A stretch of DNA of 45,718 nucleotides from positions 90,180 through 135,897 of IMG/VR virus record IMGVR_UViG_3300006045_000004. One strand, given 5' to 3'. Every line of letters begins with the position of its first letter. The first letter of the stretch is position 1. A program made the translations under genes and the position numbers. This document shows, in pieces, positions 2,180 to 31,264 of the stretch. The DNA is from a virus. Below the pieces are notes generated by a model that saw only the letters and a program-made list of their open reading frames with translations, ran no database searches and was not told the DNA's origin.

Positions 2180-2353
2180 ATGATACTTTATAGAATTAGA
2201 AAATGGATTAGGCAGAATATAGCCAAGAAATGTTTTGATTGTAAGCATTATGACACTTGTAATATGATTCATACAGAATGCTATAATTGGGAATTAAAGA
2301 TTAAGAAAAAGAAGAAACTTAAAGTTAATAAAAATATATATAAAAAAGGATAA
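2180..2353 (+). CDS. 57-aa Cys-rich basic protein
   Basis: Hand-translated MILYRIRKW...CFDCKHYDTC...C...KKG; below the ORF-track cutoff. Confidence 0.45.
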   Translation: MILYRIRKWIRQNIAKKCFDCKHYDTCNMIHTECYNWELKIKKKKKLKVNKNIYKKG

Positions 2354-2417
2354 TGGTCTAAGGGGAGGACATATGCCTGAAGAGCATAGTGTGGGAGTTC
2401 GAATCTCTCTTATCCTA
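2347..2417 (+). tRNA. tRNA-Phe(GAA)
   Basis: AGGATAA/TTATCCT acceptor, TATGC-CTGAAGA-GCATA, TTCGAAT T-loop. Confidence 0.9.
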
Positions 2418-2420
2418 TAA

Positions 2421-2493
2421 GGGGTCGTAGCTCTAACGGAAGAGCATTTGCTTTGCAAGCAAAGGGCTATGGGTTCGAATCCCATCGATTCCA
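2421..2493 (+). tRNA. tRNA-Ala(TGC)
   Basis: Cloverleaf with G3.U70; TTTGC-TTTGCAA-GCAAA. Confidence 0.93.
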
Positions 2494-2500
2494 TTTTATT

Positions 2501-2575
2501 AGGTCGTTAGCTCAGTCTGGACAGAGCATTGGACTTTTAATCCATGTGTCAGGGGTTCAAATCCCTTACGACCTG
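2501..2575 (+). tRNA. tRNA-Lys(TTT)
   Basis: AGGTCGT/ACGACCT acceptor, loop CTTTTAA. Confidence 0.93.
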
Positions 2576-2582
2576 TTCATAT

Positions 2583-2656
2583 TCCCCTATAGTGTAGTCT
2601 GGATATCACAGGAGACTTCTAATCTCTTTACCTTGGTTCAAATCCGAGTAGGGGAG
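2583..2656 (+). tRNA. tRNA-Arg(TCT)
   Basis: TCCCCTA/TAGGGGA acceptor, loop CTTCTAA. Confidence 0.92.
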
Positions 2657-2673
2657 CTTAATAAAAAAAGTAG

Positions 2674-3057
2674 GTGATTAAAATAAACTTATTAAAACAA
2701 TTAAAGAAAATAAAACTTCCAGTTGATGGATATAATGTATTTAGTGCTACTATTATTAATGGTGAAGACTATGAAATACAAATAGAATTCCCAGAAATAA
2801 CAGAAATTTTATATAAATTATCAGAAGATATATCAGATGAAGAAAGAGAAAAACTTTGGGAAGAATCTAATAAGATTTCTGAAGAACGAGCATTAGAATT
2901 TGCTAAAGCAATTGGTGCTGAGGATGAATATTGTTGGTGCGAGCATGATTATCAAGGTTTACTTGATATCCGTTTTGGTAAGTGTGAGTTTAATTGTTGT
3001 GGTGATGAAGATATTGTTGATATTGATTTAGATGAAGAAGATTTATTATTTGATTGA
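2674..3057 (+). CDS. acidic hypothetical protein
   Basis: 127-aa ORF between tRNAs; the listed GTG start lies inside the SD, so the true start is uncertain. Confidence 0.6.
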   Translation: MIKINLLKQLKKIKLPVDGYNVFSATIINGEDYEIQIEFPEITEILYKLSEDISDEEREKLWEESNKISEERALEFAKAIGAEDEYCWCEHDYQGLLDIRFGKCEFNCCGDEDIVDIDLDEEDLLFD

Positions 3058-3065
3058 TTGGTATA

Positions 3066-3083
3066 AAGGGGCATAAGCCCCTT
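3066..3083 (+). terminator. GC-rich hairpin (terminator or processing signal)
   Basis: AAGGGGC-ATAA-GCCCCTT between ORF end and tRNA-Gly. Confidence 0.4.
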
Positions 3084-3088
3084 GTATT

Positions 3089-3178
3089 GCGAGGTTGGTG
3101 TAATAGCAGCATAACTCCCTTCCATGAGTTATTACTCGGAGACAGGAGACGATAGGGGTGCAATTCCCCTACTTCGCA
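3089..3178 (+). tRNA. tRNA-Gly(TCC) with 19-nt BHB intron (3125-3143)
   Basis: GCGAGGT/ACTTCGC acceptor; central helix CTTC/GGAG, bulges CA|T and AC|A. Confidence 0.88.
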
Positions 3179-3187
3179 TTTATATTA

Positions 3188-3261
3188 TGGCATTTAATTC
3201 AGCTTGGTAGAATACCTCGTTTACACCGAGGAAGTCGCAGGTTCAAATCCTGCAATGCCAA
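3188..3261 (+). tRNA. tRNA-Val(TAC)
   Basis: TGGCATT/AATGCCA acceptor, CCTCG-TTTACAC-CGAGG. Confidence 0.92.
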
Positions 3262-3366
3262 TTGACCGTTGTTTCGTTTAATTTCTTACGGTCAAATTTT
3301 TCAGAGGTTTTTGTTTGTGGGTTTTCATCTATTCTTTTCCCACAACAAAAAATAATGTTGATTATT

Positions 3367-3834
3367 ATGATAAAAACTAAATATGGAAATGCAAAAATAA
3401 ATGATGATGGATATTATGTAATAACATCAAGAAAAGAAGGTTTTCATAATAAAAAATTATCTCGTTTGGTTTGGGAAGATTATTGGGGTTGTGAAATTCC
3501 AATTGGTTATATTATTCATCATATTGATGGTTGTAAAACTAATAACGATATAACTAATTTAGTATGTTTATCTGATTATAGGCACAAACAACTACATCAG
3601 GTTGGAAGATTACATACCGAGAAAACTAAAAAATTAATTTCTAAAAATTCAAGAGTTGAAAATAAAGGTTTGTTTGGTTCGACTGGTGCTACTTTAAGTA
3701 ATGGTATTATAGCTGAAAACAAACCGTGGATGTGCAGAATAAGGTATAATAAATATACTACTCATATTGGGTATTATAGTGATTTTGTAACATGTGAGGT
3801 AATATATAAGTTAGTATTAAAAGAAATATTTTGA
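3367..3834 (+). CDS. HNH homing endonuclease with C-terminal AP2-like DNA-binding domain
   Basis: IHHIDGCKTNNDITNL...H HNH motif; start probably ATG 3367 or 3355, since the upstream part of the tracked ORF is hairpin sequence. Confidence 0.8.
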   Translation: MIKTKYGNAKINDDGYYVITSRKEGFHNKKLSRLVWEDYWGCEIPIGYIIHHIDGCKTNNDITNLVCLSDYRHKQLHQVGRLHTEKTKKLISKNSRVENKGLFGSTGATLSNGIIAENKPWMCRIRYNKYTTHIGYYSDFVTCEVIYKLVLKEIF

Positions 3835-3905
3835 GAGGAATTGGTCTAAAAGTATGATATGATGTTTGGAACATTGTGAAGAAGGGGCAGTACCTTCATT
3901 CCTCA
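3835..3905 (+). tRNA. tRNA-Pro(TGG), atypical T-loop
   Basis: GAGGAAT/ATTCCTC acceptor, TGATG-TTTGGAA-CATTG, T-arm GAAGG-GGCAGTA-CCTTC. Confidence 0.8.
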
Positions 3906-3914
3906 TTTAAATAG

Positions 3915-4217
3915 GTGATAATAATGACAGAATTTCCATTTACTAAAGAAGAAATGAAAAAATTTGATGATATATTTAAAAAGAAAAAACAATTTCATGA
4001 TGATTGTATAGAAGCACAAAAAATTGCTATCTTTATAAAAAATTATGCTGATAATCTTAATATGAATTATGCAGTTAGATGTAATCATGGTGAAGATTTA
4101 GGTGAGTGGATAGATTATCTTTATGCTGATAAACAATTTGTTGAAGCTAAAAACTCTTACAATGCTTTGAAAAGAATGTATTATGAAAAGCAAGGTTGGG
4201 AATATTATGATGATTAA
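3915..4217 (+). CDS. hypothetical protein
   Basis: 100-aa ORF with AGGTGA SD; likely ATG start at 3924. Confidence 0.6.
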   Translation: MIIMTEFPFTKEEMKKFDDIFKKKKQFHDDCIEAQKIAIFIKNYADNLNMNYAVRCNHGEDLGEWIDYLYADKQFVEAKNSYNALKRMYYEKQGWEYYDD

Positions 4218-4479
4218 ATGGAAAATTTTAATAATTTTTCTAATAATTATTAGTTTTATATTAGTTGGATTAAATACTATAAGTGGAGTTGATGAAGATT
4301 ATAATCAACCTTCTTTTATTGAGCCAACAGAAGAAATTGAAGAGAATGAATATTCTATTTGTAATAAAGAATATACTGGTGTAAAACCAGTACCTTGGCA
4401 CAATATCCGTTCGGAAAAGTGTGTTGTTGTTAATGGTGAGAGTAGTAATAGGACAATTTGTATGAAAGATACTTTGTAG
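4183..4479 (+). CDS. small membrane-anchored/secreted protein
   Basis: N-terminal hydrophobic stretch ILIIFLIIISFILVGL. Confidence 0.55.
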   Translation: MKSKVGNIMMIKWKILIIFLIIISFILVGLNTISGVDEDYNQPSFIEPTEEIEENEYSICNKEYTGVKPVPWHNIRSEKCVVVNGESSNRTICMKDTL

Positions 4480-4579
4480 GGCAATTGGTGTAATAGAAAC
4501 ATTAGGGATTCCAGACAAGTGGGGTATATATCTGCTTGGGAAAAACCCCTGGCTGTCTGTGCGACTCAGGCATTGCCCA
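4479..4579 (+). tRNA. tRNA-Trp(CCA) with 30-nt BHB intron (4515-4544)
   Basis: GGGCAAT/ATTGCCC acceptor; helix TTCC/GGAA, bulges AG|A and AA|A; T-loop TGCGACT. Confidence 0.85.
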
Positions 4580-4586
4580 TTAAATA

Positions 4587-4658
4587 GCTCCGTTGGTGTA
4601 TTTGGAAACATCATGGTCTTTCGAACCGTGGCGACGGGTTCAAACCCCGTGCGGAGCA
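4587..4658 (+). tRNA. tRNA-Glu(TTC)
   Basis: GCTCCGT/GCGGAGC acceptor, loop CTTTCGA. Confidence 0.92.
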
Positions 4659-4681
4659 TTTTTTATTTTTTGTAATTTTAT

Positions 4682-4701
4682 GAAACATTTAAATACTATG
4701 A
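4682..4701 (+). promoter_or_regulatory. BRE-TATA promoter
   Basis: GAAACATTTAAATACTATGA. Confidence 0.7.
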
Positions 4702-4781
4702 ATGACATAATATTATATGTAGCATTTAATTTTTTTTGCTATATGAGAGATTTTTAATAATTAATTAATAGGAGGTAAACC

Positions 4782-5825
4782 ATGAAAAATTATATATTAT
4801 TAATAACAATAACAATTTTATTATTATTTTCAATATCTACTGTTGTAGCAACAGATAATATTGGTGTTTTGGAAAACGGAACTAATGTTACACTAAACGA
4901 AACACATAATGTTAGTGATGTTATAAATATAGATGGGGATGATTATTATGTTGAGAGTATAATAAAAGAACCGTCAGAAATTATTGGATATGAGGATGGT
5001 TCTAAGATAGTTACTAAACCAGCTTATAACGAAAGTAAAGTTGAAGATTATTTAGTACAAAGTGGAACAGGTACTCAACCTTGGGGTAATTTTTTACCAC
5101 CAAATGGAAAAAATACAACTTACACATATAATGTATTTAGTTCAGCTACATATGGAAAATATGGAATGGGATATATAGATATTTATTTTAGTGGAAGTTT
5201 TCAAGGTGGAGGATTTTATGGTAGAATTGCAGATAGGTTTTATTTCCAATATTATTTAGATGAAAATGGTAATGTAAAATATATACCAATGAATAATATA
5301 TCAGTCTTTAACTTAAAAACTCATGTACAAACACTTTATAATGTAAAATTGGTTAATGATATACTTATTAGTCTTACAGAAGATGGTATATTAACTGTCA
5401 CTTTTGATATGACTGGAGCTAATGTTGCTCCTACTGGCTCTAATCCTGGACGATTTTATATACAAGGATATTTTTTAAACTTAGCTCAAAGAACTGTAAT
5501 TATTGAACATGATGAAGAGTTTTATTATGAGCAGATTCCTATATATTCAGAGGAAAAGATAATTTACATATTAAAAAAAGTACAAGTTAAAACAATAAAT
5601 GAAACTAATGAAGATAATGAGACTAATAAAGGTCAAGTTTTAAATTATAAAAAACCTATGAAAAGTTCTAATAAAGTTACATTAACAGAGGGATTAAAAC
5701 CACCAGTTAAAAATTCAAAAAACAATAAAATTAATATCGTTAAAGCAAATATGAAACAAACTGGATTACCAATTAGTATTTTTATATTATTATTGTTAAT
5801 AATTCCATTAAGAAGATTTAAATAA
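4782..5825 (+). CDS. cell-surface adhesin-like protein with signal peptide and C-terminal MxxTGxP-TM-basic anchor
   Basis: Signal peptide ending VVATD; C-term MKQTGLP + hydrophobic helix + RRFK; GGAGGT SD. Confidence 0.75.
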   Translation: MKNYILLITITILLLFSISTVVATDNIGVLENGTNVTLNETHNVSDVINIDGDDYYVESIIKEPSEIIGYEDGSKIVTKPAYNESKVEDYLVQSGTGTQPWGNFLPPNGKNTTYTYNVFSSATYGKYGMGYIDIYFSGSFQGGGFYGRIADRFYFQYYLDENGNVKYIPMNNISVFNLKTHVQTLYNVKLVNDILISLTEDGILTVTFDMTGANVAPTGSNPGRFYIQGYFLNLAQRTVIIEHDEEFYYEQIPIYSEEKIIYILKKVQVKTINETNEDNETNKGQVLNYKKPMKSSNKVTLTEGLKPPVKNSKNNKINIVKANMKQTGLPISIFILLLLIIPLRRFK

Positions 5826-5856
5826 TCTTCTTTTTTATTTTTTTTTGAAAATCAAT

Positions 5857-5878
5857 GCAAACATTTATATATAATGAA
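5857..5878 (+). promoter_or_regulatory. BRE-TATA promoter of tRNA cluster
   Basis: GCAAACATTTATATATAATGAA about 25 nt upstream of tRNA-iMet. Confidence 0.7.
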
Positions 5879-5896
5879 GATATAATATAATAACAT

Positions 5897-6079
5897 ACTG
5901 GGGTAGAATAGTCTGGTCTATTTCGGTGGGCTCATAAATGAGATATAAAAAAGTTTGAGTTAATGTTTGACAAAATATTTTATAAATAAAGTAAAATAAT
6001 AATTTATTGATAAGTTTTTAGTTACTACATATCTCATTGAGATACCCACAGAGCAATGGTTCAAATCCATTCCTCAGTA
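5897..6079 (+). tRNA. initiator tRNA-Met(CAT) with 107-nt BHB intron (5937-6043)
   Basis: A1-U72, GGG/CCC anticodon stem, purine11-pyrimidine24; helix CTCA/TGAG, bulges TA|A and AT|A, intron stem ATGAGATAT/ATATCTCAT. Confidence 0.87.
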
Positions 6080-6174
6080 TTTTTACCATACAGATAATTA
6101 TTTGGGTAAATAAGTGGTTTATGGGATTGATTATCCTTGGGTTTCCATACCAATCAATAATCCTAAAATCAAAT

Positions 6175-6247
6175 GCTACGGTAGTTCTAACGGCAGAACA
6201 GGGCTCTTGTAAAGCCACGGTTGGGGGTTCAAATCCCTCCTGTAGCT
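6175..6247 (+). tRNA. tRNA-Thr(TGT)
   Basis: GCTACGG/CTGTAGC acceptor, loop CTTGTAA. Confidence 0.9.
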
Positions 6248-6260
6248 TTCATTATGGTAG

Positions 6261-6452
6261 GTGATATTTTTGAGTGATGTTAAGAAAAAAAATAGTTGTT
6301 ATAGAGATGATGTTACTTGTGAGAAAGTGATGGAGTTGGAAAGACAAGGTTTTTCTATTAAAGAAAGTGCTGAAGAGCTTGGTTGTTGTAAGTCCACGAT
6401 TACAAGTAGAAGAAAAGATTTTTATAATAAAAGATTATTAGAAGAGAATTAG
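6261..6452 (+). CDS. small helix-turn-helix DNA-binding protein
   Basis: GFSIKESAEELGCCKSTITSR HTH pattern. Confidence 0.65.
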   Translation: MIFLSDVKKKNSCYRDDVTCEKVMELERQGFSIKESAEELGCCKSTITSRRKDFYNKRLLEEN

Positions 6453-6454
6453 TT

Positions 6455-6541
6455 GGCAAGATGGGAGAGTGGTTTATTCCGTAGGTTTGCTATGCCTATG
6501 TTATCGAGAGGTAACCGCAGGTTCGAATCCTGCTCTTGTCG
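6455..6541 (+). tRNA. tRNA-Ser(GCT)
   Basis: Long variable arm, G73, loop TTGCTAT. Confidence 0.9.
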
Positions 6542-6545
6542 TTTT

Positions 6546-6617
6546 GACCCATTGGTGTAGTGGTTATCATATTTGGTTGTCAGTCAAATGAAAGGGGTTC
6601 AATTCCCCTATGGGTCG
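6546..6617 (+). tRNA. tRNA-Asp(GTC)
   Basis: GACCCAT/ATGGGTC acceptor, G73, loop TTGTCAG. Confidence 0.9.
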
Positions 6618-6620
6618 TTT

Positions 6621-6741
6621 GGCGGTGTGCCAGAGTTTGGTTTATTGGTTCGGTCTTGAATTAATGATATGCTCATTCATATCATAACAAGATAACCGAT
6701 GGTATTAGTAGTACACAGAGGTTCAAATCCTCTCACCGTCG
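6621..6741 (+). tRNA. tRNA-Ser(TGA) with 33-nt BHB intron (6661-6693)
   Basis: Helix CTTG/CAAG, bulges AA|T and AT|A, long variable arm, G73. Confidence 0.87.
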
Positions 6742-6753
6742 TTTTTTCATTAA

Positions 6754-6838
6754 TGGAGGATGCCTGAGTGGTTAAAAGGGCAGGGCTTAAGACCCTGTGT
6801 TCGTAGGAGCTTCGTGGGTTCGAATCCCATTCCTCCAA
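6754..6838 (+). tRNA. tRNA-Leu(TAA)
   Basis: CAGGG-CTTAAGA-CCCTG, long variable arm. Confidence 0.92.
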
Positions 6839-6864
6839 TTCATATAAAATATAGAGGTGAATTT

Positions 6865-7074
6865 ATGAGATATAATGTAAGTAAAAGTATAGTTAAAAAA
6901 ATAGGTAAAGAAGGTGGAATCAACAGAGTATCACCTAAAGCTATTGATTTAGTACAGGAAGAAGCGACTAAATATGTTTTGAAGCTTTTAGCATGGGGTC
7001 AGACTTATGCTGGACATGCTGGTCGCAGGACTGTTAGAAAAGAAGATATTATTATGGCTCTTGAAGACCATTAA
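6865..7074 (+). CDS. archaeal histone (HMf/HMt family), 69 aa
   Basis: RVSPKA...HAGRRTVRKEDI histone-fold signature; GAGGTGA SD 4 nt before ATG 6865. Confidence 0.9.
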   Translation: MRYNVSKSIVKKIGKEGGINRVSPKAIDLVQEEATKYVLKLLAWGQTYAGHAGRRTVRKEDIIMALEDH

Positions 7075-7090
7075 TATTTTTTTATTTTTT

Positions 7091-7172
7091 TGGGGATTGC
7101 TCGATTGGAGAAGAGGGGAGGTTTAGAACCTTCTGTGGTAGCACTTAGGGAGTTCGATTCTCTCATCCCCAA
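7091..7172 (+). tRNA. tRNA-Leu(TAG)
   Basis: TGGGGAT/ATCCCCA acceptor, GGAGG-TTTAGAA-CCTTC, long variable arm. Confidence 0.85.
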
Positions 7173-7194
7173 TTCATTATAGAGGTGATAATTT

Positions 7195-7515
7195 ATGTCA
7201 GAAGAATATAGCGTAGAGGAAATTGGTGAAGATTTTAATAAAATAACTAATATTCTTAACAAACATAATAAGATAATAGCATATAGAGAACATGAAAGTA
7301 GGTTATTAGGTAATGGAGAATTAATGGATAATGCAGAAGACAATGAGGTTACAAGACCTTATTCGATTTATAAAAGTAATGAGTTATCAGCTAATTATTT
7401 GTTAAAGTATATGGAAAAGGTTGTTCAACCTGCTTTACAAGAGTATGTTAGTGAGTATATTAATCATTTTTCTAAGGAAGCTAATAGAGATGCTGAAAAA
7501 GATTTGTTCAGATGA
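7195..7515 (+). CDS. hypothetical protein
   Basis: GAGGTGA SD, 106-aa ORF. Confidence 0.65.
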   Translation: MSEEYSVEEIGEDFNKITNILNKHNKIIAYREHESRLLGNGELMDNAEDNEVTRPYSIYKSNELSANYLLKYMEKVVQPALQEYVSEYINHFSKEANRDAEKDLFR

Positions 7516-7585
7516 GTAGTATGGTGTAGTGGTAGCACTCCAGGTTGTGGTCCTGATAGCTCGGATTCGATTTCCGATATTACTC
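7514..7585 (+). tRNA. tRNA-His(GTG) with encoded G-1
   Basis: G-1:C73 pair, loop TTGTGGT. Confidence 0.9.
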
Positions 7586-7592
7586 TTTTATT

Positions 7593-7666
7593 GGGAGTGT
7601 AGCTCAGTAGGTAGTAGCGTGGGGCTGTTAACCTCAAGGTCGAGGGTTCGAATCCTTCCACTTCCG
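7593..7666 (+). tRNA. tRNA-Asn(GTT)
   Basis: Cloverleaf, loop CTGTTAA, G73. Confidence 0.92.
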
Positions 7667-7670
7667 TTTG

Positions 7671-7745
7671 TGGAGCATAGCTCAGTTTTGGTAGAGTACC
7701 AGTCTGATATACTGGCGGTCGTGGGTTCGATTCCCTCTGCTCCAA
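7671..7745 (+). tRNA. tRNA-Ile(GAT)
   Basis: TGGAGCA/TGCTCCA acceptor, CCAGT-CTGATAT-ACTGG. Confidence 0.92.
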
Positions 7746-7765
7746 TTTTTTACAGGTGATAAATT

Positions 7766-8434
7766 ATGAAATATCCAAAAACTTTACATTTACCTTTTAG
7801 TCAATGTGTTAATAAAGATGACCGTGTTGCTGATGATATTAGTAATATTATTGGTAAAGAGATTGTTATTACTGAAAAGCTTGATGGAAGTAATGTTTTT
7901 CTTGGTGATGATATTATTCATGGTCGTTCAGATAAAAGTAAGCTTGGTGAATGGAATCATAATTTTTATTGGGATAAAAGAATAAATGTATTACAAATTA
8001 ATTTAGGTGTAAGAAAGTTATTAGGTGCTGGTAATGGTTTCTTTTTTGAGAATCTTAATGCTGTTCATTCAATTGAATATCCACAACTAAATGATTATAT
8101 CCATTTGATTAATATTACTACTGATGATGGTTGGTTTACAAAGTGGTTTTTTGTTGAAGAACAGGCAGATATATATGGTTTTCCTACTGTTCCTAAGTTA
8201 TTTGAAGGTGTTTGTTGGACTGAACAACAGTTAAAAGGTACTATTGGTAAGTTAATGAGTGAGGATTCTGTTTATGGTGGAAAGAAAGAAGGTGTTGTTG
8301 TTAGAACGACTGATGCTTTTCCGAAAGAAGATTTCGATAAGAATGTGTTTAAATTTGTTAGAGAAAACCACAACCAAACAGACAGTAATTGGAAAAGAGA
8401 GTGGAAGAAAGCAGAGTTGATACAAAGTGAATGA
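7766..8434 (+). CDS. RNA ligase family protein (Rnl2-like adenylyltransferase domain)
   Basis: KYPKTLHLPFS, TEKLDGSN, EGVVVR, KFVRENH motifs. Confidence 0.85.
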   Translation: MKYPKTLHLPFSQCVNKDDRVADDISNIIGKEIVITEKLDGSNVFLGDDIIHGRSDKSKLGEWNHNFYWDKRINVLQINLGVRKLLGAGNGFFFENLNAVHSIEYPQLNDYIHLINITTDDGWFTKWFFVEEQADIYGFPTVPKLFEGVCWTEQQLKGTIGKLMSEDSVYGGKKEGVVVRTTDAFPKEDFDKNVFKFVRENHNQTDSNWKREWKKAELIQSE

Positions 8435-8674
8435 TGAGATAGATGTATTGATAGTGTTTATTATTTTAATTATAGTTTTAATAGGAGCTGTTATGAGTGT
8501 ATGGATATGATAATGTTATTGGTAGGAGTAGTTCGCCGATTTATGAGATTAGGTGTGCTAATGTTGGTAAGTTGAATGAGTATCAGATTGAGTTTTTTGA
8601 TTGGATTCATCGTATTAGTTTAGAAAGAGAAGAGACTATAGATGAACAATAAAAATTTAGATATATTTAATTAA

Positions 8675-8749
8675 GGGCATGTGACCAAGTCTGGTTAAGG
8701 TGCTTGACTCATAATCAAGAAATCGCAGGTTCGAATCCTGCCATGCCCA
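8675..8749 (+). tRNA. tRNA-CAT, non-initiator (elongator Met or Ile2)
   Basis: GGGCATG/CATGCCC acceptor, CTTGA-CTCATAA-TCAAG; Met versus Ile2 not resolvable by eye. Confidence 0.88.
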
Positions 8750-8765
8750 TTTAGGAGTTGTTTAA

Positions 8766-8957
8766 ATGGTTGATACAAGTAGATATTATATTAAGAAAGT
8801 TAATAATAAATTTGTTATTAAAGATAGAAGAGGTAATCATAAAAATGTTGCTACTTTTACTATTATAGATACTCTTCAGAGTGAAGATATTTATAAAGCA
8901 ATTGATTTTTCTGAATTGATTTGTAATTATTTGAATAGTAAATTTTCTAATGTATGA
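8766..8957 (+). CDS. hypothetical protein
   Basis: AGGAG SD, 63 aa. Confidence 0.55.
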   Translation: MVDTSRYYIKKVNNKFVIKDRRGNHKNVATFTIIDTLQSEDIYKAIDFSELICNYLNSKFSNV

Positions 8958-9028
8958 GTTAAGTTTATATATGATAAAATATATAATATATATATGTTTT
9001 TGTTAGATTACATATATATAAAAAGTTT

Positions 9029-9100
9029 ACTCCTGTAGTCTAACGGAAAGATTCCTGCCTTTGGAGCAGGAGTTGGTGGGTTCAAGTCCTCCCAGGAGTA
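9029..9100 (+). tRNA. tRNA-Gln(TTG)
   Basis: A1-U72 ACTCCTG/CAGGAGT acceptor, CCTGC-CTTTGGA-GCAGG; TATA box at 8964. Confidence 0.9.
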
Positions 9101-24219: not shown

Positions 24220-24349
24220 ATATATTGTGCCATCTCCAATTTTTTGTGATTGTGGATTGCCTTTATTTTTTGATGATGAGAAAGAATACAACGACGATGA
24301 TTTTATAGAATGTCCTTATTGTAAAACAGCATGGGTTGTGACTGTATGA
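24167..24349 (+). CDS. small zinc-ribbon protein
   Basis: CDCG...CPYC; real start probably a downstream ATG. Confidence 0.55.
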   Translation: MKYGEEANMMAITKNQNRYIVPSPIFCDCGLPLFFDDEKEYNDDDFIECPYCKTAWVVTV

Positions 24350-24813
24350 AAAATGAAATATTTAATGAAGAAGATTTAAAAAGTATAGTAGAAAACCTTA
24401 ATGAATGTTTTAATAAAGAATATGGTCAAGCTTATATTCTTGAAATATATAATGCAGGACAGCACATAAATATTAGTATTAAAAGTAAAAATTTTGATGA
24501 TGGTTTTGGATGGCAATCTAATCATCAAATAGTAACATTAGATATTGATAATCAAGATAATAAAAGTGTTTGTGATGCAATAAAAGAAGGAAAAGATTTA
24601 ATTAAAAAATCAGTTGATGAATTGGAAAAAGTTAGTTTTTATGATGATTTAATAAAAGATTTAAACAAAAGAAAATTATTAGTTCTTGATAAAATTAAAG
24701 AACAAATATCAGATTCTTATATGCCTGAAAAAAGTCTTGATGAAGAGCTTGTACATTTATCAAATATGATTCAAGATATTGATAAAAAGTATTTAAGTAG
24801 GTGGAGTGTTTAG
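24331..24813 (+). CDS. hypothetical protein
   Basis: 160-aa ORF in operon. Confidence 0.6.
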   Translation: MGCDCMKNEIFNEEDLKSIVENLNECFNKEYGQAYILEIYNAGQHINISIKSKNFDDGFGWQSNHQIVTLDIDNQDNKSVCDAIKEGKDLIKKSVDELEKVSFYDDLIKDLNKRKLLVLDKIKEQISDSYMPEKSLDEELVHLSNMIQDIDKKYLSRWSV

Positions 24814-24986
24814 TTATGGATATAGATAGTGTTATTGGTAATAAACTTCAAAAAGTTTGGAATGAGTTAGATGATATTGAAGAAATAGTTAAGGAGACTG
24901 ATTTAGAAGATAATATTTCTAAGGTTAAGTCTGATGTTAATAGTATTATAACAAATATTATTAGAAAAAAAGTTTTAAAGGAGTAG
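24801..24986 (+). CDS. hypothetical coiled-coil protein
   Basis: 61-aa ORF in operon. Confidence 0.5.
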   Translation: MECLVMDIDSVIGNKLQKVWNELDDIEEIVKETDLEDNISKVKSDVNSIITNIIRKKVLKE

Positions 24987-24992
24987 GTATTT

Positions 24993-25277
24993 GTGCCGAG
25001 TGAAGAACAGAAAGTATATATGGATTTGGTAAGTGATGCATTTAATGATGATAAGGTTAAGCAGTTATTGGTTTTAGTTCAGCTTGATGATGATTATGCT
25101 CGTAATAATGGAACTATTGGTTTTGCTGAGGGTGAGAATAAGATGATTATTGAGTTTAATGATTCTAATACACAGGATGCTGATGATTTAATTGATTCTT
25201 CTTTATCTGCTATTGATGGTCATGAGAATAAATATCCTTTGTTAACAAGGATAAAGAATAAAATTAAGGGCTTATAG
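24993..25277 (+). CDS. hypothetical protein
   Basis: 94-aa ORF; 3' end overlaps tRNA-Arg. Confidence 0.55.
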   Translation: MPSEEQKVYMDLVSDAFNDDKVKQLLVLVQLDDDYARNNGTIGFAEGENKMIIEFNDSNTQDADDLIDSSLSAIDGHENKYPLLTRIKNKIKGL

Positions 25278-25341
25278 TATAATTAGGATAGTATAGAGAG
25301 CTACGAACTCTTTGATGGGGGTTCAAATCCCTCTAAGCTCA
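25268..25341 (+). tRNA. tRNA-Arg(ACG)
   Basis: GGGCTTA/TAAGCTC acceptor, GAGAG-CTACGAA-CTCTT, GGGGG-TTCAAAT-CCCTC. Confidence 0.85.
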
Positions 25342-25345
25342 TTAG

Positions 25346-25582
25346 GTGATATGTATGGCTCAGAAAAGTACAACAGCTTCTTTAATTAAAAAAAACAAAT
25401 GTTATTGTTTAAGACAACAAAAAGTAGTTGCATTGTCAAAATGTGATATGTTTAATTGCAATAGAGAAAAGAAGTGTCGCCAAAAATCGAATCGAGACTA
25501 TAGTAAATCTTTAAAGAAGGGAAATAATAGTGGACAAAGAAGAAAGAAAGCGAAAGGACAGAATACGACAACAAAAAAATAG
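25346..25582 (+). CDS. small basic Cys-rich protein
   Basis: AGGTGA SD, ATG 25355. Confidence 0.45.
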   Translation: MICMAQKSTTASLIKKNKCYCLRQQKVVALSKCDMFNCNREKKCRQKSNRDYSKSLKKGNNSGQRRKKAKGQNTTTKK

Positions 25583-25931
25583 AGAAAAAAAGCGAAAATA
25601 TGTAATGGAGTATAAAGAAAGAAGTTGTTGTGCGGTATGTGGAGTTTGTAATGCTTTGATAATGGATTTTCATCATATTGACTCTAAATATAATAGTGTT
25701 TCTCGTATTGTTAATAATAATAACTCATTAGAAACATTGAAAAAAGAAATAAATAAGTGTGTAACTATTTGTGGTAATTGTCATAGGTGTTTACATATGG
25801 ATAATGATTTTTATAAAAATTCTGATATAAAGCATTTGAAAGGAAAAGTTATAGAACCATTTGAAGCAATTGCATATGGTAGGATAAAAATTTCTAAATA
25901 TTGGGAACAAAAATGTTTTAAAAAGAGGTGA
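25530..25931 (+). CDS. zinc-binding HNH endonuclease
   Basis: CAVCG...DFHH...KCVTICGNCH. Confidence 0.8.
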   Translation: MDKEERKRKDRIRQQKNREKKRKYVMEYKERSCCAVCGVCNALIMDFHHIDSKYNSVSRIVNNNNSLETLKKEINKCVTICGNCHRCLHMDNDFYKNSDIKHLKGKVIEPFEAIAYGRIKISKYWEQKCFKKR

Positions 25932-27676
25932 CTAACATAAGTAATAAAGAAGGAAATAAAATGAAAGAAAGTAGTAAGAATATAGTATTAACAGATAAGC
26001 TTTTTAATGATGTTCGTTATAATTTTAATAATAATAATGCGAATATGAGTTTTAATGCAGGAACAGTAGAGCAGAATTTATTTGAGGCAGTAGGTAAGAA
26101 AAAATCTTTAAAAATATTGGAAGATGAATGTCCAGAGATAGTAAACCTTTATAATGAAGGTTATATTCATTTGAATGATTTAGGACAGTTTTATACACGA
26201 CCACATAATTGTTTCAATTTAGACCCAAGGTTTATATTTGAGAGAGGTTTTATAACAAATGGTAATTCCAAAATAAATACAATATCTAAACCTCCTAAGC
26301 ATTTAAGTAGTGCTTTAAATCAATTAATGGAATCTTTAATTAATATAAGTGGTGAGCAGTCTGGTGGAATTGGTGTTGCTTATTTTAATTGGTTTTTAGC
26401 TCCGTTTTGGAGAGATGCTGGTGAACGAGAAAAAAGACAATCTATCCAGAATTTTATTTTTAGGTTTAATCAGTTGCTTCGTGCTGGTAATCAGCCAATT
26501 TTCAGTAGTTTGAATTTGGTTTTAACTTGTCCTGAGTTTTTAGAAAGTGAATATGGTGAATACAAAGATGAGTCTGATGAAATAATTAAATATATTTGTG
26601 AGGAGATGATTTCAGGTGATGCTCGAGGAAATAGTTTTAGGTTTCCTAATCTCGTTTTTAATATCACAGGTGCTAATTTGGACAACTATATGGAAATATT
26701 TGAGTTAACTGCTAAATTTGGTACTCCTTATTTTAGTAAGAATCCGTCTGGTGTTAATGTACAACAAATGGGTTGCAGAACAGCACTACCAGCCAACTTT
26801 ACTCAAAATCCACAAAAAGATTGCATGAACTCAGGTAATGCAGTATACTCAACAATATCACTACCAATGATAGCAATAGAATCAAAAACACCAAAACAAT
26901 TTTTATCAAAATTAAAAAAGGTAATGGATATTGCTTTTAAATATACAATGATTCGTAGAGAAAGAATAGTACAATCATTAGATGATGGTTTAATGCCTTT
27001 CTTGAATCAAGATGGTTTATATGATATCGATGCTAATAGTCTTGTAATAGGTCTTTTAGGTTTAAATGAAGCATGCATATCCTTGTTTGGAAAGTCATTG
27101 GAAAAATCTATTGGTCAAGCACATGAAATATTAAGATATGCTAATGAAATAATAATGAGTTATAGGGAGAAAACTGGATATAGGTGGGGTTTATTTAGTC
27201 CTCCTTCGGAGAATTGTTCTTATACTTTGGCTAAGAAGGCAGTTAATAAATATGGGTTTAAAGGTAGTCTTGCTAATGGAACACATGATGCTCCATATTA
27301 TACAAATGGTATAAACTTTAATGTTGAAAATAATGATTTATTGCAACAGTTAGAGTATGAAACTGGGTTAAGTACATTTACAATGGCAGGGAATATTAAT
27401 AATTTTTTGATTGGTGAGGCATATATAACACCTTCTGCTTTAAAAAGTTTAACAGAAAAAGTTCGTGATGATACAGATAGTTTCTTTTGGGCTTATTCAA
27501 TTTCATATTCTATTTGTAATGAATGCGATAGTCTGTTCCAAGGTACACATGAAGTTTGTGGTGTCTGTGATGGTGAGTGTGAGTGTTTTGACCGTGTATG
27601 TGGATATGTAACCAATACAAAATCATGGAACAAAGGAAAACAAGAAGAAAAGAAAAATAGGTATTATTACTCATGA
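25928..27676 (+). CDS. nrdD: class III anaerobic ribonucleotide reductase (no ATP cone)
   Basis: IHLND, HNC, QSGG, FPN, MGCRT, PSE, YYTN, CxxC...CxxC, RVCGY glycyl-radical motif. Confidence 0.93.
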   Translation: MTNISNKEGNKMKESSKNIVLTDKLFNDVRYNFNNNNANMSFNAGTVEQNLFEAVGKKKSLKILEDECPEIVNLYNEGYIHLNDLGQFYTRPHNCFNLDPRFIFERGFITNGNSKINTISKPPKHLSSALNQLMESLINISGEQSGGIGVAYFNWFLAPFWRDAGEREKRQSIQNFIFRFNQLLRAGNQPIFSSLNLVLTCPEFLESEYGEYKDESDEIIKYICEEMISGDARGNSFRFPNLVFNITGANLDNYMEIFELTAKFGTPYFSKNPSGVNVQQMGCRTALPANFTQNPQKDCMNSGNAVYSTISLPMIAIESKTPKQFLSKLKKVMDIAFKYTMIRRERIVQSLDDGLMPFLNQDGLYDIDANSLVIGLLGLNEACISLFGKSLEKSIGQAHEILRYANEIIMSYREKTGYRWGLFSPPSENCSYTLAKKAVNKYGFKGSLANGTHDAPYYTNGINFNVENNDLLQQLEYETGLSTFTMAGNINNFLIGEAYITPSALKSLTEKVRDDTDSFFWAYSISYSICNECDSLFQGTHEVCGVCDGECECFDRVCGYVTNTKSWNKGKQEEKKNRYYYS

Positions 27677-27740
27677 TAGCTGAATTGGCTTTTGCTTTTA
27701 TAGGTGCAATTATATTAATGAAATTGTTGGAGAATAAAAT

Positions 27741-28343
27741 ATGAAGTTTTATCAAACAAGCTTGAATAATCACCCAGATGGATTGTGTATTCTTTTGATA
27801 TTATTTGGATGTTCAGAAGGATGTAGTTATTGTTTTAATAAAGAATCATGGAAAGAATATTCTCCTCCATTTGAAATATATAAGGAGATTATAGATAAAT
27901 CTCCTATAATAGATAATTTTGTATTAGGTGGAAACAATATATTAGATGATAAAAATAAGACTCTTACAAAATTATTATGCACTTATTTAAAAGAAAAAAA
28001 TAAAAATGTTTCTCTTCAAATAAATATAAAAAGTTTGAGAAACAATATTAATTTTTTACAAGAATTACCTTTTAATCATATCAGATTAAGTATTAATGGT
28101 GCTTGGTATAGTGACATACCAATTATTGAAAAACTTTCAAATATGCCTATAAAAATGACCAATATTTTAGTGTATGATGATGAGGGTAGAATTGTTATTC
28201 CAGAAAATATAAATATTGATGAAATTATTGTGAACTATGATAAACCATATTTGTATGATGTTGCTAAAAAGTTTGCTGAAATTCATAAAGTTGAGTATTT
28301 GATTAGTAAAGAGTTTGGTAAGGAACAAGTTTATATAGTATAA
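27741..28343 (+). CDS. nrdG: radical SAM NrdD-activating enzyme
   Basis: GCSEGCSYCFN CxxxCxxC, LGG; adjacent to nrdD. Confidence 0.8.
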   Translation: MKFYQTSLNNHPDGLCILLILFGCSEGCSYCFNKESWKEYSPPFEIYKEIIDKSPIIDNFVLGGNNILDDKNKTLTKLLCTYLKEKNKNVSLQINIKSLRNNINFLQELPFNHIRLSINGAWYSDIPIIEKLSNMPIKMTNILVYDDEGRIVIPENINIDEIIVNYDKPYLYDVAKKFAEIHKVEYLISKEFGKEQVYIV

Positions 28344-28367
28344 CGAACATATATTTTATAAGATAAT

Positions 28368-28973
28368 ATGAGAATTTCTGATATGAAAGTGTCATTGTGT
28401 GAAAGAAAAGAAGTGAGAGATTTTATTGAGAAATGGCATTATAGTCATAGTATTAATGGATTAAACACTTCTTATTGTTTTAAACTTACTTACAATGATA
28501 AAATTATTGGTGCTATGTTATATGGTAGGTTAGCTATGGCTGGTGTTTGGAAGAAGTATGCTGATAGTGTTGATGATGTTATTGAACTTCGTCGTCTTTG
28601 TTGTATTGATGATACTCCTTCTAATACCGAGTCTTTTTTTATAGGTAATACTCTTCGTTGGTTAAGAGATAATACTGATATTAAAATGGTTGTTTCATAT
28701 GCTGACCCTTATTATAATCACGAAGGAATTATATATAAAGCAAGTAATTTTTATCATGCTGGATTTACAGCTAAAGGAAGAGTAATAGATTACAATGGTC
28801 GCCTGTATCATGATAAGGCAATTAGAACAAAGTATAAAGGTAAATTAAAACCTTATGCTCAAAAATTAAAAGATGCTTTAGATAATGGTAAAGCTAAATA
28901 TGTAAATACACCTGGTAAACATATATATTTATATGAATTACGAAGGAGAAAAGGTAATGACAGAAAAAAATAA
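28368..28973 (+). CDS. Mom-like GNAT-fold DNA modification enzyme
   Basis: WHYSHS, ELRRLC, NTESFFI, VSYADP, H.G.IYKASNF. Confidence 0.8.
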   Translation: MRISDMKVSLCERKEVRDFIEKWHYSHSINGLNTSYCFKLTYNDKIIGAMLYGRLAMAGVWKKYADSVDDVIELRRLCCIDDTPSNTESFFIGNTLRWLRDNTDIKMVVSYADPYYNHEGIIYKASNFYHAGFTAKGRVIDYNGRLYHDKAIRTKYKGKLKPYAQKLKDALDNGKAKYVNTPGKHIYLYELRRRKGNDRKK

Positions 28974-29044
28974 AGATAAAGTTATTGTTGATTTTATGCT
29001 TTATAAGTCAACTTGTAAAAGTATTGATGATTTAAAAAAACATT

Positions 29045-29278
29045 ATGGATTGGATAAAAATGATAGTGAAAGAACTGATTAATATATTAAATGAATATGA
29101 ATTACATGAAGAAGTAGCTGTTAAAGTTAATTCTACTGTGTATAGTAATTTTAAGATAGATGAAGGAATTTATTTTGGTTCTGCTGGTCAAACAGAAGAT
29201 TCAATGATATTAAGTAGTAATAAAGCTGTATTTATATGTTTAGATACATTAAGAAAAAAGAAAGGAGGTGAAGAATAA
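29045..29278 (+). CDS. hypothetical protein
   Basis: 77-aa ORF. Confidence 0.5.
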   Translation: MDWIKMIVKELINILNEYELHEEVAVKVNSTVYSNFKIDEGIYFGSAGQTEDSMILSSNKAVFICLDTLRKKKGGEE

Positions 29279-29466
29279 TGGGTTTATTTGATGCTATAAG
29301 TGTAACTGGAATTATATTAGTTGTTTTATTTGTATTTATTGCAAGTCTATATCCAGTAGCATTTTTTATAACTAATGTATTAGGAGCTACTTGGTGGAGT
29401 TTTGATTTCTATATGTTATTCATAGGAGTTGAACTTATATTAGGTGGGCTAATGGCTAAATCATAA
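29278..29466 (+). CDS. small two-TM membrane protein
   Basis: GGAGGTGA SD, hydrophobic. Confidence 0.6.
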   Translation: MGLFDAISVTGIILVVLFVFIASLYPVAFFITNVLGATWWSFDFYMLFIGVELILGGLMAKS

Positions 29467-29473
29467 AGATAAT

Positions 29474-29758
29474 ATGTTTAAAGAATACGATAAAATACTT
29501 TATGTTCAGTTTGATAAAAAACCAATAAGAATAGCTGATTATAGTATTTACAAAAGAAAAAATCAAATAAAATTTGAAATAAATGCTCAAGCACTTAGTT
29601 ATCATAGCTTTTGTAATAAAAAAGTAAAAATATTAGTTGTTTATCCTGAATTAAAAATGTATGATAAATTTGAAGGACTTGTAGTCAAAGATAATTATAA
29701 TTATCTTTATTATGCTCCTTCAAAGTATTCTTGTATTATTCAATATGGTGATTTATAA
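29474..29758 (+). CDS. hypothetical protein
   Basis: 94 aa; shares YDKF.G motif with the next ORF. Confidence 0.55.
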   Translation: MFKEYDKILYVQFDKKPIRIADYSIYKRKNQIKFEINAQALSYHSFCNKKVKILVVYPELKMYDKFEGLVVKDNYNYLYYAPSKYSCIIQYGDL

Positions 29759-30102
29759 TGATAAATGCTTGTTTTATTGAAACTTCTAATAAAACTTATG
29801 ATTTTTATAATGGAGAATTTGAATTAGAAAAGAAAAAAATACTTTCAGACCAATCTCATTATAATCCTGAAGTTTTTAGTCCAATAGTAAAAAGTATAGA
29901 GTATATTTTAAGAATTAAAATAAGAAATAATGAAAGGTTTGAAGCATTATATCATAGAGGTAGTTTACATAAGATATTATTAATTATAGATGGTAAATAT
30001 GATAAATTTTCTGGAATAACAACAAAAATAGAAATGAATGGTATAGGAGGTATTTCTGCATATCTTGGAGATGCAACACTTATATTACAAAAAATACCGT
30101 AG
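29758..30102 (+). CDS. hypothetical protein
   Basis: 114 aa; TAATG coupling. Confidence 0.55.
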   Translation: MINACFIETSNKTYDFYNGEFELEKKKILSDQSHYNPEVFSPIVKSIEYILRIKIRNNERFEALYHRGSLHKILLIIDGKYDKFSGITTKIEMNGIGGISAYLGDATLILQKIP

Positions 30103-30135
30103 AGAACAATACTCCACTATAAAAGGTGGTTAATT

Positions 30136-30522
30136 ATGAAAAAATGTAATAAGTGTAATAATGAATATGAAGAGACAGAATTTAGTAAAAATAGTAATAC
30201 ATGTAAATCATGTGTGAGAAAATATCATAAAGAATATTATGAAAATAAAAGAAAACATAAAAAGAAAACATATAGAAATTTGATAACGAAACTTAAAAAC
30301 AAGGGTTTTAAGTATGGAGAAATAGATAAAGAAAAAGTTGATAATTTAGTATGGGATATGATTGACTTCCCAGAGCAACCTTATCTTCAGCATAGCTTGA
30401 GCCATGCTAATTTTATGAGAAAATATGATTTATGTATTTCTGAATATATTTATATTAGGAAGAGAGTAAGAGATAATAAGTTTTATATTGAAAATAAGTA
30501 TTTTTTTGTTATGATTTTTTGA
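30136..30522 (+). CDS. N-terminal zinc-finger protein
   Basis: KKCNKC...F......CKSC. Confidence 0.6.
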   Translation: MKKCNKCNNEYEETEFSKNSNTCKSCVRKYHKEYYENKRKHKKKTYRNLITKLKNKGFKYGEIDKEKVDNLVWDMIDFPEQPYLQHSLSHANFMRKYDLCISEYIYIRKRVRDNKFYIENKYFFVMIF

Positions 30523-30531
30523 AATTTTATG

Positions 30532-30552
30532 GAAACATTTATATACTATGAG
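30532..30552 (+). promoter_or_regulatory. BRE-TATA promoter of ncRNA/tRNA cluster
   Basis: GAAACATTTATATACTATGAG. Confidence 0.75.
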
Positions 30553-30567
30553 ATACAATAGTATATT

Positions 30568-30704
30568 GTTACAATAGTTTTTGAGTGGTTTTTGTTTAAT
30601 CTCCCACTTATATTGTAACCTTTCTATGTTATTCAGTTGTTGGTGTGGTTTTTCGTAAGGTCTTTCGTCTAATTTATTCCTTATTATTTCCCCACATCAA
30701 CGAT
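30568..30704 (+). ncRNA. two tandem hairpins, candidate structured RNA leader
   Basis: GTTACAATA/TATTGTAAC and GTTGTTGGTGTGG/CCACATCAACGAT stems directly after the promoter. Confidence 0.45.
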
Positions 30705-30705
30705 T

Positions 30706-30834
30706 CGGTGTGTAGCTCAGTTTGGTAGTAGCACTCGACTGTAGCGAAGGAGTAGCAATCGCTGTATAGGTTAACATATATGGCTATCCTTCACAGATAT
30801 CGAGGGGTCGTCGGTTCAAATCCGACCATGCCGA
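30706..30834 (+). tRNA. tRNA-Tyr(GTA) with 54-nt BHB intron (30745-30798)
   Basis: C1-G72 (archaeal/eukaryal identity element), helix CTGT/ACAG, bulges AG|C and AT|A. Confidence 0.9.
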
Positions 30835-30887
30835 TTTAAATCAAAATCCTTGTACAAGATTTGATTTAAGACCACAATTGTGGTTGA

Positions 30888-31010
30888 AGCTTAACTGGGG
30901 AACTTCATAAAAACTCTTGGTTCGAATCCAAGTATTCAGCTATTGTAGTCTGAATGTAGATTAAATGGGAAATCGTTATGATGACAGAAGTTCGATTCTT
31001 CTGTAAGCTA
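30888..31010 (+). ncRNA. two-headed tRNA-like RNA (two T-arms, cross-paired acceptor stems, no anticodon loop)
   Basis: T-arms CTTGG-TTCGAAT-CCAAG and AGAAG-TTCGATT-CTTCT; stems TATTCAG/CTGAATG, AGCTTA/TAAGCT, CATAA/TTATG; D-arm GATT/AATC. Confidence 0.7.
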
Positions 31011-31027
31011 TTTTTTGAGGTGATGCT

Positions 31028-31183
31028 ATGATAAAAACATTTACAAAAGTAAGAAATAAATATTGTAATAAATGTAATAGAAAATTAGATATTTATGAGG
31101 GAACTTATAATGAGCATTCTCATAAGGTAAATGGTAGAATTCGTCGTTATTATTTGTGTCACACTTGTGAGGCAAAAAAATAA
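31028..31183 (+). CDS. 51-aa zinc-finger protein
   Basis: Hand-translated; CNKC...CHTC; GAGGTGA SD. Confidence 0.6.
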   Translation: MIKTFTKVRNKYCNKCNRKLDIYEGTYNEHSHKVNGRIRRYYLCHTCEAKK

Positions 31184-31190
31184 ATATTTT

Positions 31191-31264
31191 GCTGGTGTAG
31201 GGTAGTTCGGCGACTCATCTGGTTGCAGACCAGAATCACGCAGGTTCAAATCCTGCCACCAGCT
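31191..31264 (+). tRNA. tRNA-Cys(GCA)
   Basis: GCTGGTG/CACCAGC acceptor, U73, TCTGG-TTGCAGA-CCAGA. Confidence 0.92.

Follow-up and report, generated by a model that had tools for sequence, protein, structure and literature searches.

A near-complete, non-redundant tRNA gene set with archaeal-type introns in a tailed virus of probable methanogen hosts

Results

This study examined a 45,718-nucleotide stretch of viral DNA (hereafter the window), which forms the last 45.7 kb (positions 90,180 to 135,897) of the 135,897-bp record IMGVR_UViG_3300006045_000004, and found in it 24 transfer RNA (tRNA) genes, all on the plus strand between positions 2347 and 31264, with 21 of them clustered within 2347-9100. 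The set covers 20 amino acids and fills 24 of the 25 decoding units, none of them twice. We consider it fairly probable that these genes constitute a real, selected, near-complete and strictly non-redundant archaeal-type tRNA complement that secures the tRNA supply of viral translation. The record has a guanine-plus-cytosine (GC) content of 27.6%, is linear according to IMG/VR and is ~85% complete according to CheckV.

The design of the set was read from its anticodons; except where another source is named here or below, each gene was called by ARAGORN and matched by the Rfam tRNA model. All seven family boxes other than that of Arg are served by U34 alone, in the genes for Ala (UGC, 2421-2493), Gly (UCC, 3089-3178), Val (UAC, 3188-3261), Pro (UGG, 3835-3905), Thr (UGU, 6175-6247), Ser-UCN (UGA, 6621-6741), and Leu-CUN (UAG, 7091-7172, supported by ARAGORN and its structure). 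Arg-CGN is assigned to an ACG tRNA (25268-25341), which lies away from the main cluster. Single genes are present for Phe (GAA, 2347-2417; ARAGORN, and 61 bits in Rfam), Lys (UUU, 2501-2575), Arg (UCU, 2583-2656), Glu (UUC, 4587-4658), Ser (GCU, 6455-6541, with a long variable arm), Asp (GUC, 6546-6617), Leu (UAA, 6754-6838), His (GUG, 7514-7585), Asn (GUU, 7593-7666), Ile (GAU, 7671-7745), Gln (UUG, 9029-9100), Tyr (GUA, 30706-30834), and Cys (GCA, 31191-31264), one for each two-codon unit, and are joined by tRNA-Trp (CCA, 4479-4579), the initiator tRNA-Met (CAU, 5897-6079), and one more CAU tRNA (8675-8749; 72 bits in Rfam). This list agrees with the sequence-only reading of the window, which had described one U34 tRNA per family box, ACG for CGN, one tRNA per split box, and no redundancy. 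The chance that 24 random draws contain no redundancy is 8e-5 for a 34-gene archaeal repertoire and 5e-7 for a 46-gene repertoire, and the chance of U34 in all seven boxes is at most 0.008. Of the 25 species that make up the minimum set defined experimentally for plastids (Alkatib et al. 2012, PMC3499367), the virus has 24, and the likeness to minimal sets that had been proposed is upheld.

The count of 24 was also borne out, although several methods were required to reach it. ARAGORN with default settings returned 19 tRNA genes, every one on the plus strand and inside the window, and the Rfam scan returned 20; the gathering score of the Rfam tRNA model RF00005 was exceeded by 19 of the 24 genes. 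Intron-aware ARAGORN (-i) added the initiator CAU, Ser-UGA, and Tyr-GUA genes (Tyr also scoring 44 bits in Rfam), and a slightly lower threshold (-i -ps90) added Trp-CCA. An ambiguous ARAGORN call at 3088-3179, labelled '???' with 'anticodon tc', was parsed by hand as an intron-containing tRNA-Gly (UCC), for which an Rfam score of 42 bits and the fold provide further support. The tRNA-Pro gene, the weakest of the 24, had no ARAGORN call and no Rfam match even at E<=10 on that stretch alone; it was recovered by a cloverleaf scan as a 71-nt sequence with 20 of 21 stem pairs and U33, and its minimum-free-energy structure is a cloverleaf. Because an intron-permitting version was too permissive in AT-rich DNA, the scan employed a stem-GC filter and a shuffle control. 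The filter gave 14 hits in the real genome, 13 of them known tRNAs, and no hit in 20 Markov-shuffled genomes. Lowering the ARAGORN threshold to -ps80 produced 218 calls, nearly all of them junk with huge 'introns', and the candidates at 3303-3485, 30931-31010, and 31575-31681 were dropped after inspection.

All 24 genes have a cloverleaf structure with stems of 7/4/5/5 bp, a 7-nt anticodon loop, and U33, and 19-21 of the 21 stem pairs are formed in each. The GC content of the genes is 39-56%, against 27.6% for the genome, and no duplicated or fragmentary tRNA gene was found. Across the other 90 kb of the record, no further tRNA was detected by ARAGORN, by the cloverleaf scan, or by Rfam at its gathering score; the further G34 or C34 isoacceptors that might have lain elsewhere were therefore not found in the record by these three methods, and ARAGORN on the whole ~85% complete record gave nothing beyond the 24.

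Five of the genes contain an intron, all at position 37/38, namely those for Gly (19 nt, 3125-3143), Trp (30 nt, 4515-4544), initiator Met (107 nt, 5937-6043), Ser-UGA (33 nt, 6661-6693), and Tyr (54 nt, 30745-30798). The results revealed a strict archaeal bulge-helix-bulge (BHB) motif of the 3-4-3 type in all five, which comprises a 4-bp central helix between nucleotides 32-35 and the 3' end of the intron, an outer helix, and two 3-nt bulges. The central helices are CUUC/GGAG, UUCC/GGAA, CUCA/UGAG, CUUG/CAAG, and CUGU/ACAG, and the predicted splice sites lie after the second base of each bulge. This hBHBh' geometry and the 37/38 position are identical to those of euryarchaeal tRNA introns, which are cut by EndA and joined by RtcB. 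The difference lies in the genes that carry them (Gly, Trp, initiator Met, Ser, and Tyr) and in the enzymes, the virus supplying a ligase but not the endonuclease. Among the five intron-bearing tRNAs, only Trp is known as a usual euryarchaeal intron site.

Relatives of the split DnaE that adjoins the tRNA cluster were found on many contigs of ~100-150 kb. One of these contigs carries the annotation Methanobrevibacter sp., and a second belongs to the bin of a Methanobrevibacter metagenome-assembled genome (MAG). That MAG (G006, 30% GC) was used as the host proxy, as a stand-in only. These relationships suggest a ~136-kb tailed virus of Methanobacteriaceae-type, gut-type methanogens. The elongator tRNA-Met of the proxy has a BHB intron of the 37/38 type, as the viral genes do. 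The proxy also carries one AT-rich tRNA-Leu (UAG) (G006:C4:65509-65595; L191) that is unlike its GC-rich tRNAs and may derive from a viral or integrated element.

The nearest relative reached (L007, 73% DnaE identity) has tRNA-Arg (ACG) at the same place and with an identical anticodon loop, and its anticodon stem is re-paired from GAGAG/CUCUU to AUGGG/CCUAU by compensatory changes. The syntenic tRNA-Cys is kept in two more distant relatives (L010 and L011). Five relatives from IMG/VR with 35-39% DnaE identity carry 1, 12, 4, 5, and 3 tRNAs by Rfam, among which are C34 isoacceptors, a redundant Thr pair (CGU plus UGU), and some genes with an intron. The full non-redundant set thus belongs to this lineage in particular, and viral tRNAs with introns are common across the group. 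Single-protein searches of IMG/VR found no relatives, and GenBank phages yielded generic tRNA matches alone. Among the relatives, a PTH2 peptidyl-tRNA hydrolase was observed beside NrdD (L009, 57% DnaE identity; L009:19657-19995) and a Mom-like protein in the nearest one (L007:12700-13332).

Several features of the mature sequences indicate tRNAs of the archaeal type, produced within an archaeal cell. In the initiator tRNA, whose best match is the initiator tRNA of the proxy, the first pair is A1:U72 and the anticodon stem contains GGG/CCC. A1:U72 also occurs in Gln, and Tyr combines C1:G72 with a short variable arm; G-1 is encoded in the His gene together with C73, Ala has G3:U70, and U73 is present in Cys and Thr. 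None of the 24 genes encodes CCA. The viral tRNAs share 60-78% identity with those of the proxy, and eight anticodon loops differ. The D-loop GG and the T-loop UUCRA that form the elbow were found in 21 of the 24 genes. The exceptions are Gly, Pro, and Trp, in which position 55 is G (T-loops UGCAAUU, GGCAGUA, and UGCGACU, respectively) and the D-loops lack G18G19 (AAUAGCA, AAAAGUA, and AAUAGAA, respectively); this non-standard elbow is the reason that standard tools missed these three or scored them low. A further departure is A37 in Pro-UGG, Leu-UAG, Arg-ACG, and Asp-GUC. In the proxy, Pro, Leu-UAG, Asp, and the Arg tRNAs that read CGN (UCG and GCG) all carry G37, where m1G37 is usually formed.

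Two CAU genes only were found in the record, as the sequence-only reading had stated in noting an initiator, one other CAU tRNA, and the absence of either elongator Met or Ile2. The second CAU tRNA begins its acceptor with GGGC, which is the same in the Ile2-type CAU gene of the proxy, and is unlike the intron-bearing elongator Met of the proxy, which starts with GCCG. AUA accounts for 4.5% of viral codons, and its share among Ile codons is twice that of the proxy. On the basis of the acceptor and the AUA frequency, the second CAU tRNA is probably tRNA-Ile2, reading AUA after agmatidine formation, which would make elongator Met the missing species; elongator Met is the less likely identity of the gene. 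A comparison with 41 Methanobacteriaceae genomes gave short T-arm matches only and no full-length match, and did not distinguish Ile2 from Met.

Enzymes that join RNA are also encoded by the virus, namely RtcB and two ATP-dependent RNA ligases. The RtcB tRNA-splicing and repair ligase is intact (417 aa, Pfam 7.5e-57) and lies ~8 kb upstream of the window (G000:C1:80871-82016; L211:4773-6026). One RNA ligase (PF09414; 7766-8434, plus strand) is located inside the tRNA cluster (Pfam 3.4e-13; PHROG RNA ligase 2.9e-31); its nearest homologues, with 43-44% identity, were rejected as relatives of the virus because their contigs are those of T4-like bacterial phages. The other is a 434-aa protein directly upstream of the cluster (319-1623, plus strand). 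It had no Pfam match, and searches of PDB sequences with the protein or its profile were empty; a search of the record with the Rnl1 Pfam model gave no match, and neither did the control. The invariant KxDG, EG, and KxK motifs are present in 40 homologues, and the structural model (predicted local distance difference test score, 90.6) has RNA ligases as all of its top 40 Foldseek PDB hits, with E values down to 9e-9, among them archaeal Rnl3, T4 Rnl1 and Rnl2, and fungal Trl1. The conserved motifs and the predicted fold identify it as a putative ATP-dependent RNA ligase of the Rnl1/Rnl3/Trl1-like fold, with ~100 uncharacterised homologues in metagenomes. Archease, an AAA_33 kinase, and PTH2 were not found in the record.

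We further analyzed codon use in relation to the set. Of the viral codons, 85.5% can be read by the 24 tRNAs through standard wobble, and the remainder are mainly family-box NNU codons; with four-way reading by U34 and I34-like reading by A34, CGG alone stays unread. Genome-wide, NNU is the more frequent choice in the boxes of Ala, Gly, Val, and Leu-CUN. For the NNU family codons to be read, either U34 has to read four ways or G34 tRNAs of the host have to take part, and the proxy carries both G34 and U34 isoacceptors for the family boxes that were recovered from it (Thr, Val, Gly, Ser, Leu, and Arg). Codon use is nearly the same in the virus and the proxy for most amino acids; therefore, a complement that serves all twenty is not explained by simple codon compensation.

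The two strands of the record differ in this respect. The frequency of A at the third codon position is 0.53-0.60 in minus-strand genes and 0.32-0.45 in plus-strand genes. The minus-strand genes, which are structural, use NNA over NNU in six of the seven family boxes and exceed the proxy in NNA share in all seven (Thr, 0.65 against 0.38; Pro, 0.72 against 0.49; Ser, 0.66 against 0.44), and AUA makes up ~0.6 of their Ile codons as opposed to 0.23 in the proxy. In plus-strand genes, NNU is commoner in five of the seven boxes, all but Pro and Thr. The preference of the minus strand for A-ending codons and AUA could reflect strand skew, or the genes could be tuned to the U34 and Ile2 tRNAs of the virus.

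Some further observations concern the surroundings of the genes. TT follows the discriminator base directly in 22 of the 24 genes, often as TTTT or TTTA, and is probably an archaeal terminator or processing signal. The tRNA genes alternate with short open reading frames (ORFs). An HNH_3 homing-endonuclease-like ORF lies between tRNA-Val and tRNA-Pro (3355-3834, plus strand), and a small protein with an archaeal histone fold (69 aa; PF00808, 7.7e-8) is encoded at 6865-7074 (plus strand), flanked by the two tRNA-Leu genes; a second HNH ORF further upstream is listed on a near-identical contig. Near-identical contigs occur in the samples JGI 3300002504 and 3300002505 and in SRR6220664. Some groups of tRNA genes are preceded by TATA-like boxes. 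The sequence AAACATTTATATA, which resembles a B recognition element and TATA box, occurs exactly at 5859-5871, 30533-30545, and 42420-42432. One copy is 26 nt upstream of the initiator tRNA and another is at the head of the Tyr/Cys RNA region; with up to two mismatches allowed, no overall enrichment was observed (26 found against 19 expected). Between tRNA-Tyr and tRNA-Cys lies a tRNA-like 'two-headed' RNA (30886-31010, plus strand) in which, the 3' half preceding the 5' half, all four stems expected of a circularly permuted tRNA can be found: a T arm (CTTGG/CCAAG), an acceptor (CTGAATG/TATTCAG), a D arm (GATT/AATC), and a stem TTATG/CATAA. It also has a second T-arm-like hairpin, and its leader AGCTTA pairs with its trailer TAAGCT. 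It was rejected as a missing Pro or Met tRNA and as a BHB-processed permuted tRNA, since no anticodon loop closed by a stem was found and a 3-4-3 BHB could not be built across the junction.

Discussion

Large tRNA arrays are already known in phages and in one haloarchaeal virus. The unusual aspects of the present set are that it is a near-exact minimum (24 of 25), that five of its genes need archaeal splicing machinery, and that it is accompanied by three RNA-joining enzymes. We compared it with known systems by tRNA set and gene content. The Halogranum tailed virus HGTV-1 (Hagravirus capitaneum), a tailed virus of ~140 kb, holds the record tRNA count among archaeal viruses, with 34-36 tRNA genes for 19-20 amino acids (PMC8651126, PMC13532342), and a role of its genes in tRNA supply and repair has been suggested (PMC13532342). 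Both are archaeal tailed viruses of similar size with a near-complete tRNA set, RtcB, and RNA ligases, and one HGTV-1 tRNA contains an intron. HGTV-1, however, is a GC-rich haloarchaeal virus with redundant isoacceptors, pseudogenes, a CCA-adding enzyme, and a lysyl-tRNA synthetase, whereas the virus examined here has 24 non-redundant genes that serve all 20 amino acids, His among them; five of these genes have a BHB intron, the family boxes are left to U34 except for an Arg tRNA with A34, and no CCA-adding enzyme was found.

Phage T5, likewise a large virus, and a lytic one, with a tRNA set of similar size, encodes 23 tRNAs that counter the tRNA nucleases of PARIS and retron Eco7 and rescue infection; these tRNAs differ from those of the host in the anticodon stem-loop and sustain translation when host tRNAs are cut (PMC11464382). 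The T5 tRNAs are bacterial and intronless and their function was shown experimentally, whereas the present virus is known here from its genes. No archaeal tRNA nuclease matching those of the T5 systems is known; purely as context, SLFN/AlbA_2-domain proteins, which are candidate tRNA nucleases, were found in 11 of the 41 Methanobacteriaceae genomes searched. With 21 of the 24 tRNA genes clustered, all 20 amino acids covered, and RNA ligase and RtcB genes, the viral set is the same kind of system as those of HGTV-1 and T5, in another host group and with a stricter minimum-set design. The literature examined, which leaves out the compendium of Medvedeva et al. (2023), describes no large tRNA array in methanogen viruses, and an earlier description is possible.

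The plastid, Mycoplasma, and mitochondrial sets share with the virus the use of U34 alone in family boxes, ACG for CGN, and one tRNA per split box, and the separate initiator and Ile2 of the plastid-type minimum set recur in the viral anticodon logic. Those sets are the sole pool of their compartment; their U34 is unmodified, and a TadA-type deaminase acts on ACG. By contrast, the set of the virus would operate beside a full host pool in an archaeal setting, is one species short, and has no deaminase that was found.

On the basis of these findings, a possible mechanism can be outlined. The tRNA genes would be transcribed from the early or replication strand, and the transcripts would be trimmed by host RNase P and tRNase Z. 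Five of them would be cut at their BHB motifs by the host splicing endonuclease, and the halves would be rejoined by host or viral RtcB. CCA would be added by the host enzyme, and charging would be performed by host synthetases. With one decoder for each of 24 of the 25 units, the set would supply viral translation, above all that of the structural genes rich in A-ending codons, and the supply would hold when host tRNAs are limiting, degraded, or cut by tRNA-targeting defences. RNA repair would be contributed by RtcB together with the two ATP-dependent RNA ligases. The set falls short of autonomy; it depends on EndA, the CCA-adding enzyme, synthetases, and TiaS of the host, on the missing CAU tRNA, probably elongator Met, and, for NNY family-box codons, on either four-way U34 reading or G34 tRNAs of the host.

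Several points weigh against a selected complement that secures viral translation, or against its full autonomy. The support for it consists of gene presence, structure, and statistics; the host is one we infer, and the proxy MAG is a stand-in. One CAU tRNA is missing from a record that is ~85% complete. No match to an A34 deaminase (TadA type; PF00383 and PF14437) was obtained in the record, and archaea are not known to have TadA; neither EndA nor an archaeal CCA-adding enzyme was found in the record, and no viral function that destroys host tRNA was identified. NNU family codons amount to 13-14% of all viral codons. The tRNA-Pro, with its non-standard elbow and no Rfam match, may function poorly, and A37 in place of the proxy G37 in Pro, Leu-UAG, and Arg-ACG could carry a cost in reading-frame fidelity. 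The full set is not essential for the virus group, because relatives have 1-12 tRNAs. Superwobble is not required either, because the choice of U34 also fits the NNA preference of the structural genes.

The last point leads to the strongest alternative, an ordinary boost in supply, in which the viral tRNAs top up the host pool for the codons of the structural genes (A-ending family codons and AUA), U34 reading NNA and NNG and host G34 tRNAs reading NNY. We regard this as possible, with less confidence than the selected complement. It accords with the NNA preference and the AUA share of the minus-strand genes, with CGU, the Watson-Crick partner of ACG, being the commonest CGN codon, and with the reading of 86.8% of structural-gene codons by the 24 tRNAs as opposed to 80.5% of proxy-host codons. 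Nevertheless, the codons for Lys, Glu, Gln, Leu, Phe, Asp, Asn, and others are used alike in the virus and the proxy, yet their tRNAs are encoded, and a strict cover of one tRNA per unit is unlikely to arise under piecemeal selection. Moreover, no G34 tRNA is kept for the NNU codons that prevail on the plus strand, and the bias toward A at the third position may be plain strand skew.

The sequence-only reading had gone further and proposed that a superwobble-type set could replace the host tRNA pool after tRNA destruction. In a more far-reaching form of the idea, the 24 genes would be a working minimum decoding set in which unmodified U34 reads whole boxes and A34 reads CGN without a deaminase, so that translation of late genes continues after the host pool is lost; either the virus or a defence that cleaves tRNA could cause the loss, and RtcB and the two RNA ligases could assist. 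Superwobble pool replacement is plausible but unproven. Codon use close to that of the proxy, tRNAs with 60-78% identity to those of the proxy, and the three RNA-joining enzymes speak in its favour. The missing CAU tRNA, the lack of a detected deaminase, EndA, or CCA-adding enzyme, the NNU codons, the NNA preference, and the lack of any sign of host tRNA destruction speak against it, and we consider the working minimum decoding set doubtful. If true, it would be the first superwobble decoding in Archaea and would provide a minimal tRNA set that is both natural and transplantable.

Roles other than decoding, such as decoys for anticodon nucleases, sources of regulatory fragments, punctuation for operon processing, or recombination targets, appear very unlikely. 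The alternation of tRNA genes with short ORFs and the TT after 22 of the 24 genes are compatible with punctuation or termination, and the 'two-headed' RNA without an anticodon loop in the same region and the aberrant elbows of three tRNAs could also be taken as signs of a role outside decoding. However, the exact cover of the code, the conserved anticodon loops, the synthetase identity elements, and the compensatory changes are demands of decoding that a decoy or a punctuation mark does not need. The least probable explanation, and a disfavoured one, is that the genes were captured from a host and now decay without any present function; the low GC content (39-56%), the 60-78% identity to cellular tRNAs, and a tRNA-Pro below any Rfam threshold would suit decay, but stems with 19-21 of 21 pairs, five perfect BHB motifs, no duplicates or fragments, a tRNA-Arg (ACG) conserved with covariation, and one gene per decoding unit would not be expected from it.

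A practical warning also follows, in that default tRNA finders miss one fifth of the genes of this set. If the selected complement is expressed and decodes, it would constitute a natural test of the fewest tRNAs that sustain archaeal translation. It would also suggest that tRNAs are a target in the conflict of methanogens with their viruses, and these hosts are relevant to gut and rumen methane.

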